Source of the DNA: an uncultured archaeon
GTDB taxonomy: Archaea; Asgardarchaeota; Lokiarchaeia; Sigyniarchaeales; SOKP01
Reading direction: 5' to 3'
Assembly (NCBI GenBank): GCA_964493385.1
Contig: CAZBNW010000004.1
Span: 566-64,565 of the forward strand
DNA length: 64,000 nucleotides
Part shown: piece after piece, positions 7,517 through 62,780 of the stretch
How the letters are laid out: the number at the start of each line of letters is the position of its first letter
Position numbering within the stretch: position 1 is the first letter of the stretch
The notes under the pieces: model-generated
The model's input: the letters and a program-made list of their open reading frames with translations, nothing else
Database searches by the model: none
Told to the model about the DNA's origin: nothing
Position numbers and translations under genes: made by a program

Positions 7517-9484
7517 ATGGACTATTTATCTTTTTTCCCTTACGAGCAATTCAGAGAAAATCATGAGAATATTACCAAGCAGATTGAACTAAGTTCAAGA
7601 TCAAAAAAAGTAACTCTTTTATTAGCTCCTAATGGAACAGGAAAAACAATAATTGCTTTATGTGGGCTTTTACCTTTAGCTTATGAGAAAAATCTAAAAA
7701 TCATTTATATGTGTCGAACACATTCTCAAAATCGTAGAATAATCAAAGAGTTGATAAAAATCTCACAAAAAATAACCGATGATAATCTTGGAATTAAACT
7801 TAACTGTCTATCGATAAGAGGGAGAAATGAGATGTGCCTAAATAAAACCTTATTATCTCTTAAGCTAAATCCAAGGGAAGCTATGTCTGTTTGTAGAGAC
7901 TTAAGAAAGAATAGGAATTGTATTTATTTTTTAAATTTATTAAAAAAGAAGGGACAAAATGAAAATCCAATATCAATCGCACCAGAATTATTTAATAAGC
8001 CAGTTGATGCGGAAGATCTTATAAATTTCTGTAAGGTAAAAAAATTTTGTCCTTATTTCTTAAGTAAGTTCTTACTTGAACAGATGAAAGTAATTATCTG
8101 TAATTATCAATGGATTTTCAATCCATTCATTCGAGATTCTTTTTTAGAATTTATTGGTCAAGAGCTTCAAAACTGTATATTAGTATTAGATGAATGTCAT
8201 AATATAATTGATGTTGCTACAGAAGTAAATTCAAAAAAAATCACACCATATTCATTAAGACTTTGCTTAAAAGATCTAGAAATGTACAGGTCCCCTATCT
8301 TAATGCAGAGTTTTGTTAAAATATTATTAGATCAATTAAATGAGAAGAAAAATAATCTAAGAATTGAAGAAAAATCGGTTTTACCAGGTAAATTTTTAGA
8401 AATTATTTATAAAAAACTTGGACTTCATGACTTGAATGGATTTAAGATCTATATCGAAGAACTTCATGATTACAGTGTTTCAATTCATGAGGAAAAACTC
8501 GCTAATGGTGAAATCTCAAGAGATTTTGTTGGTTCTTTAGCAGAATTTTGGTTGAAATGGCTGAAAACATACACTTTAGATAATTATTTCTTTTGTTACA
8601 ATCTAAAAACCATTAAAGGAAAACGATTAGTATCACTTGAAATTGTAGCATTAGATCCGAGAGAAATTTCTATTCCTATCTTAAAAAGATGCTATACATG
8701 TTTAAATCTCTCTGGCACTGTGAATCCCTATGTTTTTAATAATTTAATGGGATTAAATGAATGTGGTAAGAGTTATAAAGGGATTATAGCAGGCTCACCA
8801 TTTAGTAATAAAAATATTAAGGCTATTATCACTGAAGGAGTAGATACTAAAAGAGATAATAGAATACCGAGTATGTTTAAAAAAATGATTAAGAAAATTA
8901 GTGAAGTTTTGCAATGTACTCCCGCAAATATAGGGATTTTTTGTGCATCCTATCAAATTCTTAATGCCCTCATAGAGAATGGTATAGAATCTGTAATAGA
9001 AAAAAATAATAAAAAACTCTTCATTGAGGAACCTGGATTGTCCGCCTCTGAAAATGCTGTTTTAGTAGATAATTTCAAAAGTATGGCTTCAAATGGAGGG
9101 GCTGTTTTATTAGGAGTATGTGGAGGAAGAAACTCAGAAGGAGAAGATTATCCAGGAGGCTTCATGAATTCTGTTATAATTGCTGGATTTCCATATCATC
9201 TACCAACTCCTAGAGTTGAGGCAAAAATAGGTTACTATGATAAAGTTTTTAAAAGACAAGGTTGGAATTTTGGGTACCTTTATCCAGCGGTGCAACGAGC
9301 CAATCAAGCTTCTGGGAGACCAATAAGAAAGATCTCTGATAAAGGGGCGATTATTTTTATGGATAGCCGATTTAAAGCAAAATATAAATGGATTTCAGAC
9401 TGGATAAGAAAAGAATTAGAAATAATTCCTGATAAACCCAATGCTATAATTCAGAACTTACATCCTTTTTGGAATGCTGTATAA
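7517..9484 (+). CDS. XPD/Rad3-family superfamily-2 DNA helicase
   Basis: Walker A APNGTGKT and a DEAH-like VLDECHNI. Four spaced Cys between them (EMCLN, SVCRD, NCIYF, FCPYF) fit the FeS domain. C-terminal QASGRPIR. Confidence 0.8.
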   Translation: MDYLSFFPYEQFRENHENITKQIELSSRSKKVTLLLAPNGTGKTIIALCGLLPLAYEKNLKIIYMCRTHSQNRRIIKELIKISQKITDDNLGIKLNCLSIRGRNEMCLNKTLLSLKLNPREAMSVCRDLRKNRNCIYFLNLLKKKGQNENPISIAPELFNKPVDAEDLINFCKVKKFCPYFLSKFLLEQMKVIICNYQWIFNPFIRDSFLEFIGQELQNCILVLDECHNIIDVATEVNSKKITPYSLRLCLKDLEMYRSPILMQSFVKILLDQLNEKKNNLRIEEKSVLPGKFLEIIYKKLGLHDLNGFKIYIEELHDYSVSIHEEKLANGEISRDFVGSLAEFWLKWLKTYTLDNYFFCYNLKTIKGKRLVSLEIVALDPREISIPILKRCYTCLNLSGTVNPYVFNNLMGLNECGKSYKGIIAGSPFSNKNIKAIITEGVDTKRDNRIPSMFKKMIKKISEVLQCTPANIGIFCASYQILNALIENGIESVIEKNNKKLFIEEPGLSASENAVLVDNFKSMASNGGAVLLGVCGGRNSEGEDYPGGFMNSVIIAGFPYHLPTPRVEAKIGYYDKVFKRQGWNFGYLYPAVQRANQASGRPIRKISDKGAIIFMDSRFKAKYKWISDWIRKELEIIPDKPNAIIQNLHPFWNAV

Positions 9485-39702: not shown

Positions 39703-40236
39703 ATGACAGATATAAACAATGAAGAACCTCCAAGACCTCCAGGATTACAAATAAACACAAAAGCGCCACTGATAGATACTGTAGATATTTATGGGAATCC
39801 AATAAATTTAAAAGATCTTCTCCTATCTTACAATGGAGTTTTGATAGATTTTTTCCGAGGAAATTGGTGAAGTCATTGCAAAAAACACTTAAAGCTGTTA
39901 ACTGAGCATATCTCTGAATTTGAAAATAGAAATATTAAACTTATTTCTATTGCGAGCGATAGCGTCAGACTTCTGAGGATATTTAAAGAAGAAAATGATT
40001 TTAATGTTGACATGATATCTGATAGAGGTGCTAAAATAGCGAAGGAATATGATGTTTACTGGTTTGCTCCCGGTGGAGGAAAAAATTATAAAATAAAACA
40101 AGCAGTACCAAGTAAATTCCTCATCAATAAAAATGGTGAAATTATCTGGAAATATATAGGGAAAGATAAAACAGATAGACCCTCGATCGACATGATGATT
40201 AGCATTATTGATAAACAAATTATAAATCCCAAATAA
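39703..40236 (+). CDS. Thioredoxin-fold redoxin (AhpC/TSA-ResA-like), predicted selenoprotein with an in-frame TGA at 39868..39870
   Basis: ATG 39703 is in frame with listed ORF 40012..40236. The translation reads ...VLIDFFRGNW-TGA-SHCKKHL..., so TGA replaces the first Cys of WCxxC. The downstream D..G.IA..Y and P.KFLINKNGEI blocks fit the fold. Confidence 0.8.
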
Positions 40237-40245
40237 GAATGAATT

Positions 40246-40296
40246 GAGCGTAAAAAAATGAGACGTTCAAGGACAACCTTGTGAGGGTTTTGGGAT
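40246..40296 (+). promoter_or_regulatory. GC-rich hairpin island in the redoxin 3' UTR; candidate SECIS element
   Basis: CAAGG-ACAA-CCTTG stem-loop (40268..40281) flanked by UGAG on both sides (40259..62 and 40282..85). It is the only GC-rich stretch in this intergenic region. Confidence 0.3.
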
Positions 40297-54519: not shown

Positions 54520-55778
<1,259 letters not shown>

Positions 55779-58643: not shown

Positions 58644-59261
58644 ATGAGCAAAACTAAAAAAGAAATAAAACTTTTTAATAAATGGCCTTTTAAGGACTTA
58701 AAAGTTAGAGATAGAACTCTTGAAAACTACATAAATTTAAAACCTATTATAGTACCTCATTCTGCAGGGAGACATGAGCATAAGCGATTTTGGAAGTCTT
58801 CAAAAGTCTCAGTTATTGAACGTTTTTCTAATAGATTGCTCTCTCCCGGTTTTATTGGCAGTAAAATTAAGGGCCATAAAAGTTCTTACAATTCTGGTAA
58901 AAAAAGCAAATTATTAAAAAGTTTAGAAAATGCTTTTACATTAATAGAGCTACTCACTGAGCAAAATCCTATTCAAATTTTAGTAGATGCTATCTGTAAT
59001 TCTGCACCGCGAGAAGAAACAACCAAAATTGCGATGGGAGGTATCTCCTATGCATCAGCCGTAGATATAGCCCCACAACGCCGAGTTGACTTAGCTATAA
59101 AGTATATCGTTCAAGCAATCGGTGCAAGATCACATGCAAATGTGAAGATGTTCGAAGAAAATTTAACCCAAGAACTAATATTAGCAGCAAATAATAGTCA
59201 AGAATCTAGAGCTGTAAAGCGAAAAGATGAAATCGAGAGAATTGCTGTTTCTGCACGATAA
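58644..59261 (+). CDS. rps7: Ribosomal protein S7 (uS7)
   Basis: 205 aa with the C-terminal blocks PREETT and AVKRKDEIERIA. SD GAGGT lies 8 nt before the ATG. Confidence 0.9.
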   Translation: MSKTKKEIKLFNKWPFKDLKVRDRTLENYINLKPIIVPHSAGRHEHKRFWKSSKVSVIERFSNRLLSPGFIGSKIKGHKSSYNSGKKSKLLKSLENAFTLIELLTEQNPIQILVDAICNSAPREETTKIAMGGISYASAVDIAPQRRVDLAIKYIVQAIGARSHANVKMFEENLTQELILAANNSQESRAVKRKDEIERIAVSAR

Positions 59262-59570
59262 ACATATTCAAGAATTTTAACAAATCACTTTTTATAAAAA
59301 AGAATCCTTATTATGGTAATTTGCTAAAGATAATATATCTTGGATTGGAAAAAAACTTCTATATTTTAATATAAATTATATTTGAAAGACTTTTTACTTC
59401 AAAAATTTACCATTTTCTTTTAAATAGTACTATAGAATTATTGTTGCATAGGGATATTAATGATATATCAATTTCTATATAACTCATTTTTAGATTTAAT
59501 CACTTATTTAAGGAGGTAATGAAGGATTAAAGCACTTAAAAAAAGGATATGGTTGATTGAACACAAAAAA

Positions 59571-59762
59571 ATGCAAGAAATGAGTCCAAAGGAATACTAT
59601 AGCGAAATTTTTAAGGAAATTGTACAAGAAATTAAAAATAATGAAAAGAGTATTGGAAGATTTGTTATCTGACCTATTTGTAATACTAAGAATTTGTCTA
59701 TCAATAAACTTTGTCATAAATGTGGCAAGAAAAATAACCGTTTGATTGAAAAATATCTTTAA
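59571..59762 (+). CDS. Candidate 63-codon zinc-ribbon protein with an in-frame TGA (59670..59672) at the first Cys position
   Basis: MQEMSPKEYYSEIFKEIVQEIKNNEKSIGRFVI-TGA-PICNTKNLSINKLCHKCGKKNNRLIEKYL, which is (U/C)PxC-x10-CxxCG. It is not in the ORF track. Confidence 0.4.
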
Positions 59763-59820
59763 ATTTGTTTTTAAAATTAAGCTTAAAGATAGATATCAAA
59801 TAAATAAAAAAAAATAATAA

Positions 59821-60483
59821 TTATTGAGGTGTCCCACAAAACACACAATATTTTGCTCCAGGTTCAGCTGGTGCTCCACATTGCTGACAGAAATTGGTAT
59901 GTCCCTCAACTTTATATTTTGCATGAGTTCGAGAAGTTTGAACAACTTCAAATTCACTTAAATTTGTTCCACAACTATGACAGAATTTCGGATTTCCTTT
60001 CACTTTTATACCACAAGATGGGCAAATCATAAGAACTCTTGTACCACACTCTTGACAAAATTCCCACTTACCTTCAATTTGTTTTCCACATTTTGAGCAA
60101 AATTTTACTTCTTTTGCAGCATATTCTAGAATAGTAAAAAAGATGGCTAAAATAAGCGTGGATCCAATGGGGATTAGAGGGATCCAATAATCATAAGGTG
60201 GGAAAACAGCGACTTGGAGAATAAGCATTACCAAAGTCGTTATTGCAAATATTGTCCAAAATCCAATCATCCCAAATTTAACTTTTCTTTTACTAGAAAA
60301 ATCTATAATTGTCCCTATGATAGCGAATATGAGGACTGTTCCAATTGGAATTGGCATCCAAAACTGAAAACCATAAAAAACACCTTCAGCAAGAATAATC
60401 ATTACAAACGTAGTTATTATAAATAATGCCCACAAACCAATAGTACCCATACTGATTTTTTTTTTAATTTCATTCCAACTCAT
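59821..60483 (-). CDS. Membrane protein with a triple zinc-ribbon C-terminal domain
   Basis: Four TM segments followed by CSKCG..CQECG, CPSCG..CHSCG and CQQCG..CVFCG. Confidence 0.6.
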   Translation of the reverse strand: MSWNEIKKKISMGTIGLWALFIITTFVMIILAEGVFYGFQFWMPIPIGTVLIFAIIGTIIDFSSKRKVKFGMIGFWTIFAITTLVMLILQVAVFPPYDYWIPLIPIGSTLILAIFFTILEYAAKEVKFCSKCGKQIEGKWEFCQECGTRVLMICPSCGIKVKGNPKFCHSCGTNLSEFEVVQTSRTHAKYKVEGHTNFCQQCGAPAEPGAKYCVFCGTPQ

Positions 60484-60797
60484 AAAAAAACCGTTTCTAT
60501 TAATTAAGTTTTAAAATAATACATATTACTTATAATGTTTATATATTTTATAAAAAATAATTGGAGTCCAATTTTATTTGTTAAAATAAAGAGTAAAGAT
60601 GAGATTTAGAAGTTAAATTTCTTATAGATAAAATTAATTTGACTATGAGATTAATTCTCTTAAATTAAAGTTTCATATCACCTACATATTATTAATTTTC
60701 ATAGATAGCCTAGAAAATTCCTTAATTTTTATATAATAGCTAAACATAATATTTATTTAAACAGAATTAAAGAAACAGAACAGGGTCAATAAGTAAA

Positions 60798-62780
60798 GTG
60801 GATACCGACAAAAATCAAGATATTTTAGAAAAGCAACTAAAAGTATTAGGTAAAAAGGTTAGGATTGATATTTTAAAAAAATTAAAAAACACTCAAACTC
60901 CATTATCGTTTTCAAAGCTTCAAAAAGAGGTTTTAGGAAATAATCTTTCTTCTGTTAATTTGTCATTCCATCTAAATACTTTAAAAATGGGTGAATTAAT
61001 TTTATCATCAGAAGAAGGTTATTCAATTACTTTATTAGGGGAACAAATTATAGATAAGATTTCGTCTATTGAGCAAATTCTAAATAAACAACACAAGGCA
61101 AGGATGATCCGAACCTCAAAATATTCTAAGGAACTATTTGATTCAAGAAAAATTGAGGAATATTTAGTGAAAGAAGGTGAATTAGAGCGATTTTTAGCTA
61201 AACAAATTGCCCATGAAGTAGAAGAGCGTCTCTCTAAGACAAATATAGAATATATGACTACACCCTTGATGCGTGAGTATATTAATGCAGTTTTATTAGA
61301 AAATGGTTTAGAGGAAGTCAGACACAAGTTAACTCGATTAGGAACTCCTCCATTCGAAGTATTTCAATTATTTGATTCAAAAAAGTGTGAGATTAGGCCT
61401 GAAAACTTTATTAAAAGATTAGGTTCTGATGTTTCTGAACAGTTTTTACTTCTTAACCTTTTGCCTAAGAACCTAGCCGATCTATATTTATCTGGAGAAA
61501 TTGCCTTACTCTATTTGAATTATTGGAGTTTAAGGCCATTAAGTTTGTATATAAACACAAAAACAATAATTAATTATCTTTTCAAAACTCATTCATATTC
61601 TTCACAGAAAATTAAAGGATCTACAGATTATACAGATTTTCTTATTCACTTTTTTGATCTGTTATATACACTAAACCAATTTTATTCCGAAGACTTATTT
61701 CTAGGCGATTTCAATACTCAATTTCTCTCTTATTTTGAATTACCAAAAACAAAATCATTCAATTTTAATTTATTAACTTCTCAAATGCTTAGGTTCAATA
61801 ACTTCTTTAATGATGGTAAAACACATTTATCATTGAACTTTAATTATAATAGAGAATTAGTAGAAAACTTTGCAATTCAGAATCAGATTGATGAACAATT
61901 TCTTAATTCTTTAAATATACAAAATAGAGACCGCACAAAACCACTACTATTTTTTGAGTGGTTGACGCTTTTATCATCAGAATCGGGAAGTGGTATCAGA
62001 AAAAGTCTTCTTACTGATTCTAATAAAAATAATCTAATTATCTATAATAAAGATTATTCAGATTTATTAAATTCAACCATAATTCAAATACCAAATCCTA
62101 AAGAGGAAAAAATTATTTTAGACAAGATCTTAGTGAATTTACACATGATATCAGTAGAGGCAAAGCAAAATGATGATTTATTTTTAGATTTACTACAAGA
62201 TAAATTAAATTCTATATTTGAATTATTTAAATATAAAGATAAATTAGTTCAAAAAAGGCTAAATTCTCTTAAACAATGGAATTTCTTAATTTCTCGGATT
62301 TTAAATAAGAATATAAGACATCTATTTGGAGAAGCTTTAAAGGCCATTAGTTTTTTCGGCTTAAATGAAGCTATTTTAAATCATTGCGGAATTGAACTCG
62401 ATAGAACAGAAAGCAGTGAAGCTTTTGCGCTAAAAATCCTATCAAAAATGAAAAATATTATTGAGGAAAGAAATGAAGTTGATAACAATTATTTTATTCT
62501 AAGTCAACCACATTATGATTCTTATTTGAAAGATTCCTACCATAATGGTATGGCACAATACAAACAAAAAATAAATGGATATTCTTCAAGAATAATTAGA
62601 AGTGAATCAAATCTTTCCTTGAATAAAAAAATCAAATTATTCAAAAAATTTCAAAAAATCCTCAATGGAGGGACTTTATTTATAGAAAAAAAACCACTTG
62701 AAATGTCATATCAAAAATTTTTAAAAACTTTATTTGAATCCAAAATAGGTGCGATTTCTTTAAGTGATTGCATATTCTAA
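60798..62780 (+). CDS. Winged-helix (ArsR-like) plus ATP-cone domain protein with a large uncharacterised C-terminal region
   Basis: wHTH pattern RIDILKKL...LSFSKLQKEV...VNLSFHLNTL. ATP-cone pattern MIRTSKYSKELFDSRKIEEYL...YINAVLLENG. The rest has only a weak class III RNR-like flavour and no glycyl-radical motif. Confidence 0.5.
   Translation: MDTDKNQDILEKQLKVLGKKVRIDILKKLKNTQTPLSFSKLQKEVLGNNLSSVNLSFHLNTLKMGELILSSEEGYSITLLGEQIIDKISSIEQILNKQHKARMIRTSKYSKELFDSRKIEEYLVKEGELERFLAKQIAHEVEERLSKTNIEYMTTPLMREYINAVLLENGLEEVRHKLTRLGTPPFEVFQLFDSKKCEIRPENFIKRLGSDVSEQFLLLNLLPKNLADLYLSGEIALLYLNYWSLRPLSLYINTKTIINYLFKTHSYSSQKIKGSTDYTDFLIHFFDLLYTLNQFYSEDLFLGDFNTQFLSYFELPKTKSFNFNLLTSQMLRFNNFFNDGKTHLSLNFNYNRELVENFAIQNQIDEQFLNSLNIQNRDRTKPLLFFEWLTLLSSESGSGIRKSLLTDSNKNNLIIYNKDYSDLLNSTIIQIPNPKEEKIILDKILVNLHMISVEAKQNDDLFLDLLQDKLNSIFELFKYKDKLVQKRLNSLKQWNFLISRILNKNIRHLFGEALKAISFFGLNEAILNHCGIELDRTESSEAFALKILSKMKNIIEERNEVDNNYFILSQPHYDSYLKDSYHNGMAQYKQKINGYSSRIIRSESNLSLNKKIKLFKKFQKILNGGTLFIEKKPLEMSYQKFLKTLFESKIGAISLSDCIF

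Follow-up and report, generated by a model that had tools for sequence, protein, structure and literature searches.

An in-frame TGA at the first zinc-ligand codon of an rps7-linked Lokiarchaeial micro-protein gene is probably a nonsense mutation and not a selenocysteine codon

Archaeal genomes code for one-domain C(P)XCG zinc-finger micro-proteins of fewer than 80 amino acids (aa), which are often regulators or stress related and are often unannotated (PMC11241148, PMC6562870, PMC10716476, PMC2253796). Asgard archaea also make UxxC selenoproteins, in which an in-frame UGA coding for selenocysteine (Sec) is aligned with the Cys of homologues and is followed by xxC; in an organism that decodes Sec, a UGA in register with a conserved Cys is exactly what selenoprotein screens pick out. 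A small open reading frame (ORF) at 59571-59762 (+) of the 64-kb stretch of genome analyzed here (the window), from a Promethearchaeota (Lokiarchaeia-type Asgard) archaeon of 29% GC, resembles both. It reads MQEMSPKEYYSEIFKEIVQEIKNNEKSIGRFVI-TGA-PICNTKNLSINKLCHKCGKKNNRLIEKYL-TAA (63 codons), and the TGA occupies the position of the first zinc ligand of a four-Cys ribbon. With a probability of roughly 0.88, this TGA is a TGT-to-TGA nonsense mutation that truncates a fast-evolving, lineage-specific micro-protein, and not a Sec codon.

An rps7-linked micro-protein family and its cysteine column

The small ORF has rps7 (58644-59261) on one side and, on the other, a convergent minus-strand gene (59821-60483) for a 220-aa membrane protein with zinc ribbons; it is antisense to a listed ORF at 59508..59717 (-). 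A sequence-only reading of the window had proposed it as an unannotated zinc-ribbon ORF in which TGA replaces the first Cys of a CPxC knuckle, with the partner CHKCG ten residues on; translation of the window confirms the frame, its antisense placement, and the spacing of the two knuckles (xPIC and CHKC), and homology and synteny mark it as a real gene. The best match is the 63-aa protein P0001 (78% identity, E=2.6e-24, with Cys imputed at the TGA of the query), whose gene, at locus L085, lies in the identical slot, separated from rps7 by a spacer of 309 nt and from the convergent 220-aa gene beyond it by one of 58 nt. A tblastn search of 80 species-representative Promethearchaeota loci together with a metagenome scan places the same gene downstream of rps7 in ∼35 further loci; ten metagenome contigs (L086-L095) carry an orthologue, one of them from the original Lokiarchaeum LAZR assembly. 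In most loci the small gene starts 307 to 313 nt past the rps7 stop, with conserved upstream blocks. The helix motif SPKEYY..FKEI..EIK.NE is conserved in ∼35 loci, and the substitution pattern of the gene is protein-like.

By sequence and position, the small ORF is a member of an unnamed, Lokiarchaeia-restricted micro-protein family linked to rps7. The members are annotated as 'hypothetical protein [Promethearchaeota archaeon]' (P0001-P0009, P0013-P0017, P0021, P0025, P0027, and P0049; e.g., NCBI loci ACFFDB_14465 and ACXAAH_08750), and no Pfam domain is assigned to any of them. A word-indexed protein search gave one homologue only, and the family became visible by profile-based and exhaustive searches, which returned 12 clusters among 5.8 billion proteins and ∼20 family-level representatives at 50% clustering, with profile E-values inside the family down to 1e-33. 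With this family the small ORF shares the helix motif, the CPxC-x10-CxKCG ribbon at the C-terminus, and a place ∼310 nt downstream of rps7, but it has TGA where every intact member has Cys, such that only the ribbon-less part would be made. The family is an unannotated, Lokiarchaeia-specific combination of helix and zinc ribbon beside the rps12-rps7 genes, and illustrates that gene callers miss micro-protein genes of this kind.

Two related loci have insertions between rps7 and the small gene. L047 (6619-8200) has ∼1.2 kb inserted, including a duplicate of the rps7 3' end (7758-7874, ...LAQELILAAKNSQESRAVKRKDEIERIAVSAR), and L039 (6712-7815) has a 367-aa ORF inserted; the small gene's own upstream block is kept in both despite the insertions.

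In the AlphaFold (AF2) model of P0001, residues 6-28 form a helix, and the beta-hairpins of a two-hairpin zinc ribbon come after it (residues 31-55), with a mean predicted local distance difference test (pLDDT) score of 74.6 and values of ∼83 to 88 in the ribbon core; on this model the orthologue has a two-hairpin zinc-ribbon fold. Among known families, the ribbon resembles Zn_Ribbon_1 (PF13240) and DZR (PF12773), with which it shares CPxC-x(10)-[FYL]CxKCG. Weak matches are found in 11 of 14 members and stay below the gathering thresholds even with Cys imputed (16.2 versus 25 bits for PF13240 and 16.6 versus 27.3 for PF12773), a resemblance that we nonetheless regard as real; the N-terminal helix, in contrast, is unrelated to these families. 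The adjacent 220-aa membrane protein repeats ribbons of the Zn_Ribbon_1/DZR type, one of which is 47% identical over 21 aa to the ribbon of the small ORF, and an exhaustive search draws in many multi-ribbon proteins via positions 36-63 only. Membership in TackOD1 (PF18551) was rejected, as its match (E=1.3e-4) is ribbon driven and, at 22 bits, falls short of the cut-off of 32.

By profile and by fold, the ribbon finds its best analogues in eL40 and the RanBP2/NZF fingers, which share the pattern xxIC-xx-CN-x-[RK]N-x6-C-x-KCG. In profile searches the RBM10 zinc finger has E=0.006 and eL40 E=0.014 to 0.05; the top Foldseek match is Thermococcus kodakarensis eL40 (32 aligned columns at 41% identity), and NZF fingers superimpose with a root mean square deviation of 0.6 to 0.9 Å, the Foldseek matches having E >0.5. 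The ribosomal neighborhood and these profile matches raised an eL40 paralogue as a candidate, which was rejected: the matches are nonsignificant, and the family evolves fast, is frequently truncated or deleted, and is restricted to one class, and therefore does not behave as a ribosomal protein. Like the C(P)XCG micro-proteins, such as Haloferax volcanii HVO_0758 and its relatives and Halobacterium Brz, the family has a single C4 finger or ribbon with CPxC/CxxCG knuckles; unlike them, it belongs to another phylum, has a CPxCN and not a CPxCG first knuckle, and shows no detectable sequence relationship to them. Because of this analogy and the basic N-terminus, our guess is that the family proteins might be small adaptors or regulators that bind nucleic acid or protein, with the helix as functional core and the ribbon dispensable.

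The four ribbon Cys residues are invariant in an alignment of 13 intact orthologues and in every further intact member retrieved. At the TGA column itself, Cys is present in all intact orthologues seen (about two dozen), and further members have CPxC-type knuckles. Of 14 loci read at the DNA level, 13 (L085, L086-L095, L047, and L058) have TGT as the first-knuckle codon and L039 has TGC; the patterns used in the metagenome scan to find L086-L095 left this codon out. TGA at this column is confined to the window lineage, a singleton among ∼25 to 30 orthologues. Locus L096, which has the allele closest to that of the window, has TCT (Ser) here, which differs from TGT by one step and from TGA by two. 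A single transversion turns TGT into TGA, TGT is the common Cys codon of the window (164, versus 49 TGC), and TGA is a normal stop, ending 8 of its 56 long ORFs. Of the two origins considered in the sequence-only reading, a Sec-containing site or a recent TGY-to-TGA mutation, the orthologues point to the second.

The small gene can be read in three parts. Its translated part (59571..59672, +) consists of the ATG, 33 sense codons in all (MQEMSPKEYYSEIFKEIVQEIKNNEKSIGRFVI), and the TGA, and codes for the family's conserved amphipathic helix. The TGA itself (59670..59672, +; codon 34) is best read as a TGT-to-TGA nonsense substitution acting as a stop codon. A putative zinc-ribbon relic follows (59673..59762, +), comprising 29 codons (PICNTKNLSINKLCHKCGKKNNRLIEKYL) and TAA, which would be untranslated; it is open and keeps the other three Cys codons. 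With three ribbon Cys residues and a stop in place of the first, the window allele lacks the four-Cys C4 set that the intact orthologues have.

Ribbon loss and the fate of the putatively truncated gene

Members of the family are ∼63 aa long from the ATG, or ∼77 to 79 aa if translation begins at the conserved stretch upstream of it, and in each a basic segment at the N-terminus precedes a single amphipathic helix and a four-Cys zinc ribbon at the C-terminus. The gene stands ∼310 nt downstream of rps7 and appears to have its own promoter-like block and a strong Shine-Dalgarno (SD) sequence. In the window lineage the first zinc-ligand codon would have changed from TGT to TGA and would act as an ordinary stop, leaving a ribbon-less peptide of 33 aa (from ATG), 39 aa (from TTG), or 48 aa (from ATT) and 29 downstream codons as a young, still-open relic. 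The truncated peptide may still work, as natural short forms of the family presumably do.

Such short forms are common. At least 13 loci (L025, L033, L042, L043, L031, L019, L011, L009, L015, L012, L052, L030, and L026) code for helix-only peptides of 31 to 37 aa that end where the ribbon would start, and ribbon-less proteins have been called in three cases (P0097, 33 aa; P0051, 39 aa; and P0040, 50 aa). Across helix codons 5-26 of the ribbon-less forms, the ratio of nonsynonymous to synonymous differences (pN/pS) is ∼0.31, with pS at 0.45 versus 0.41 for rps7, the pairs being nonindependent; the helix is therefore under purifying selection and is kept as coding sequence without the ribbon. 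The zinc ribbon is expendable in this family and has been lost repeatedly and independently, and repeated truncation with the helix retained amounts to a small natural experiment in domain dispensability.

Other loci have lost more than the ribbon. The small gene is degraded in L005, L006, L014, and L018, with stops even in the N-terminal part in L005, L006, and L014, and it is deleted in many relatives (e.g., L008 and L010), in which the convergent gene comes straight after rps7. In L005, codon 3 is a stop, and frameshifts and C37F are also present; L096 has C34S, K46stop, and C48Y. Within the window's own clade the ribbon is intact in L085 only. These deletions and N-terminal stops favor an alternative that we regard as a serious candidate, if an unlikely one: that the whole locus is a dead pseudogene in the window lineage, its N-terminal half open only because the lesion is young. 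This alternative differs from truncation to a working peptide solely over the usefulness of the truncated product. It also draws support from the comparison with L085, in which the flanking genes have a synonymous divergence (dS) of 0.11 to 0.12 and a nonsynonymous divergence (dN) of ∼0.02, and the small ORF as a whole has dN=0.13, about equal to the flanking dS; its replacement sites therefore evolve at an approximately neutral rate. The two halves differ, however, with omega (dN/dS) at ∼0.31 before the TGA and 0.71 after it in the same comparison; codons 35-63 are at ∼0.7 against either L085 or L096, and the N-terminal half is at ∼0.3 to 0.46 in close comparisons. Together with the pN/pS of the ribbon-less helices across many lineages and the conservation in the window of the promoter-like block, the SD sequence, and the upstream frame, this constraint argues against a dead locus, and we lean slightly toward a truncated peptide that is still useful rather than a locus heading to loss.

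Changes unique to one allele, assigned from three-way site patterns, number 19 for L085, 13 for L096, and 6 for the window. Only one of the window's six lies upstream of the TGA, which is a further argument against a pseudogene, and the other five lie at or after it (codons 34, 39, 43, 52, and 57), suggesting that the post-stop part of the ORF is drifting. An earlier polarization with L005 as outgroup gave ∼17 window-derived versus 4 L085-derived changes with a cluster at codons 55-59, and was set aside, as L096 shows that most of these changes are shared with a second allele class. The small-ORF alleles group as (window, L096) and (L085, L005), two classes that disagree with the relationships of rps7, because the locus is a homologous recombination mosaic between diverged Lokiarchaeial populations: between L096 (2074-3911) and the window (58644-60483), rps7 has dS=1.07 and the 220-aa gene ∼600 nt downstream has dS=0.18.

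Several points weigh against a plain nonsense mutation. The 5-versus-1 split of window-specific changes about the TGA is based on small counts and is not statistically significant. All 29 post-TGA codons are open despite the 29% GC, with three Cys kept, and the ribbon core is one amino acid from that of L085, which fits a young lesion and would also be expected if the ribbon were still translated. A UGA followed by C is a leaky termination context in other organisms, and the small ORF has this context, so that some read-through is possible. The analysis covered 64 kb of the genome, so that a distant or unconventional recoding signal is formally possible.

These points bear on an improbable alternative in which the UGA mostly terminates and near-cognate read-through yields a minor full-length zinc-ribbon isoform, giving a short and a long form. 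The TGA-C context, the intact downstream frame with its three Cys, and the evident viability of both short and long architectures in the family fit this. However, Trp or Arg in the place of a zinc ligand is unlikely to give back a C4 site, the window-specific substitutions are concentrated past the stop where omega is ∼0.7, no conserved read-through signal or structure is present, and nothing comparable is seen in relatives.

The selenocysteine alternative

We consider it very improbable that the UGA is a functional recoding site of any kind, whether through Sec directed by an unrecognized or distant signal or through regulated read-through, that gives both the helix peptide and the full-length protein. 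If it were one, the full-length protein would have a metal site of the form U/x-PxC...CxxC, and the gene would stand for a new family of Asgard selenoproteins at the moment of its origin from an ancestor with Cys. The specific form of this proposal, in which the TGA encodes Sec in a UPxC...CxxC metal-binding or redox site of a small zinc-ribbon protein, we regard as most improbable, and it can be weighed against a positive control within the same window.

This control is a gene for a Prx-like selenoprotein of thioredoxin fold at about 39703-40236 (+), with a TGA at 39868-39870 in the context FFRGNW-U-SHC. A lokiSECIS, the SECIS (Sec insertion sequence) element of these archaea, lies 3 nt past its stop at 40239-40273 (+) (ATGA / ATTGAGCGT / AAAAAAATGAG / ACGTTCAAG / GA), in which AUGA is followed by a stem of 9 bp, a loop of 11 nt, A-rich at first and with AG last, and then GA, with a lower helix on the flanks; it folds with z=-3.3 and matches the published lokiSECIS definition (PMC4989117). 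The organism therefore decodes Sec, and the scan can detect its SECIS elements; none of the genes for tRNA-Sec, EFSec, PSTK, and SepSecS is within the 64-kb window, and it is the Prx-like gene that points to Sec capacity. Like this gene, the small ORF has an in-frame UGA aligned with the Cys of homologues and followed by xxC; unlike it, the small ORF has no SECIS, and its UGA is absent from orthologues.

The criteria applied were an [A/G]UGA core, a 7- to 15-bp stem, an A-rich apical loop, and [G/A]A, in the same mRNA and normally just 3' of the coding sequence. A search of 59262-60400, which covers the 5' region and the sequence from the TGA to 60400, gave no match to the strict lokiSECIS pattern for the small ORF. 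A loose Asgard SECIS model (Huang et al. 2024, PMC11227280) has three matches in the 728 nt downstream of the TGA against a background of ∼9 per kb per strand, and an [A/G]UGA core and an A-rich loop are both missing from all three. The sole loose-model match with a RUGA core (59641-59672) was rejected, being upstream of the UGA and ending on it, and having two mismatches in its 8-bp stem. A bacterial-type SECIS hairpin 3' of the UGA was likewise discarded, as 59664-59830 folds with z=-1.64 and 12 of 200 shuffles are as good. Rfam searches, at gathering thresholds for the whole window and at E-value thresholds for 59200-60600, gave only chance-level matches for the small ORF; among these, a C/D small RNA reading (AUGA...CUGA) was rejected, since the sR20 match that spans the TGA has E=4.6 and scores 15 bits where the threshold is 44.

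The 3' end of the gene is also unfavorable to Sec. A weak palindrome, TTAAGCTTAA, described in the sequence-only reading as counting against Sec, is indeed present in the 58-nt 3' spacer, and no SECIS is found there. In 57 of 58 positions the spacer matches that of the L085 allele, which encodes Cys, and it is well conserved in L096 and L005; no SECIS was therefore gained along with the TGA. A T-run, TTTGTTTTT, at 59764..59772 (+), directly after the TAA, is likely an archaeal oligo-T terminator and would therefore leave no room for a SECIS in the 3' untranslated region, and the convergent gene begins 58 nt past the stop.

In favor of Sec, the UGA and a conserved Cys share a column exactly, in the manner of genuine Sec/Cys pairs, the organism decodes Sec, the downstream frame is open with the ribbon core nearly unchanged, and Cys homologues that acquire a SECIS are the proposed source of new Asgard selenoproteins (PMC11227280). 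Against it, neither a lokiSECIS nor an eSECIS-like element is present in the 3' spacer, the next ∼600 nt, or the 5' region; and the UGA with its downstream coding sequence is not conserved in other lineages, the closest allele, L096, having Ser at this column and further lethal ribbon lesions. The word 'zinc' is absent from the main text of the Asgard selenoproteome survey (PMC11227280). The case shows what a SECIS control from the same genome and the sampling of orthologues are worth where a screen flags a UGA.

An artefact can be dismissed, whether in the form of an AT-rich intergenic stretch that is open by chance or of a TGA miscalled in sequencing or assembly, even though gene callers called nothing here and the window has 66 in-frame TGAs with at least 25 open codons on either side, given the homologues, the conserved synteny, the protein-like substitutions, and the identity of the TGA in five assemblies and two haplotypes. 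The open flanks, which the sequence-only reading correctly described, are not above chance alone, and the case for a real gene comes from homology. As to the assemblies, L001-L004 (the same organism, in two ENA and two Logan assemblies) match the window across 59262-59820 except for one single nucleotide polymorphism, a C/T at 59263 that defines two haplotypes; TGA is present in both, and in all five assemblies including the window, so it is not an assembly error.

Start region, spacer elements, and other features of the window

The ATG at 59571, taken as the start in the sequence-only reading, lies in a real frame, but coding probably begins upstream of it, to judge from a conserved in-frame stretch. 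This extension, (I)KALKKRIWLIEHKK at 59526..59570 (+), has possible starts at ATT 59526 and TTG 59553, and a TTG-started ORF at 59553..59672 is present in the program's ORF list. The frame is open for 16 to 17 codons upstream of the ATG in nearly all loci, with IK[AV][LI]KK[RK]xWL conserved. ATG starts are found within the stretch in P0049 (MKALKKRNWL), P0003, P0004, P0007, and P0016, and these members, which span the stretch, favor coding over a noncoding RNA element, which was considered and rejected; codon-position entropy is uninformative here, the sequence being A-rich.

An SD-like AGGAGGT at 59511..59517 (+), putatively functional, lies 9 nt before the conserved ATT, and A[A/G]GAGGT is at the same position in most loci. 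Just after it, the window has a 3-codon out-of-frame mini-ORF (ATG AAG GAT TAA, 59519-59530), and most related loci have a 3- to 4-codon out-of-frame mini-ORF 2 to 3 nt past the SD sequence, ending in a conserved TAA. The main frame of the related loci has a conserved ATT/ATA 9 nt past the SD sequence, and no canonical start codon is conserved there. This arrangement may represent a noncanonical start or a small regulatory upstream ORF.

The most conserved noncoding block of the spacer between rps7 and the small ORF, in an alignment of 22 loci, is ACTTCAAAAATTTACCATTTTCTTTTAAATAG at 59396..59427 (+). It contains a TATA-box-like TTTAAATA at 59419-59426 (+) and is likely the gene's own promoter by comparison with the archaeal TATA consensus; a conserved TAGGGATAT at 59449-59457 (+) is where transcription would begin if it is.

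Two further features of the window lie outside the small ORF. In the trigger-loop region of rpoA'' (54811-54854), a frame-breaking 29-nt insertion at 54817-54845 (GGAGACAGATAACTGTCTTCTGCGTAAAA) forms an 8-bp hairpin with an AUAA loop, contains an in-frame TAA, shifts the frame by 2, and is flanked by GAG...GAG. The insertion is present in the window, L001, L002, and L085; 72 of 77 related loci have the 12 nt GAAGAATTTTCT (EEFS) after ...RTFHYAGV and lack it, and L096 has an uninterrupted 401-aa A''. The downstream frame has no canonical start codon before the conserved segment past the insertion. Because the subunit is essential, these features suggest RNA-level removal (as a mini-intron), a GAG-to-GAG hop of 32 nt, frameshifting, or a split subunit. 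L082 has a 1590-nt gap, a multiple of 3, between HYAGV and VTQGLP of rpoA'' at the same trigger-loop site, which looks like an intein. The second feature is a 660-aa protein encoded at 60798-62780 (+) and conserved in L085, with an N-terminal winged helix (DUF7347), a weak ATP-cone match, and a partial NRDD (anaerobic ribonucleotide reductase) match that has E=1e-15 and spans profile positions 284-473 only, an unusual architecture.

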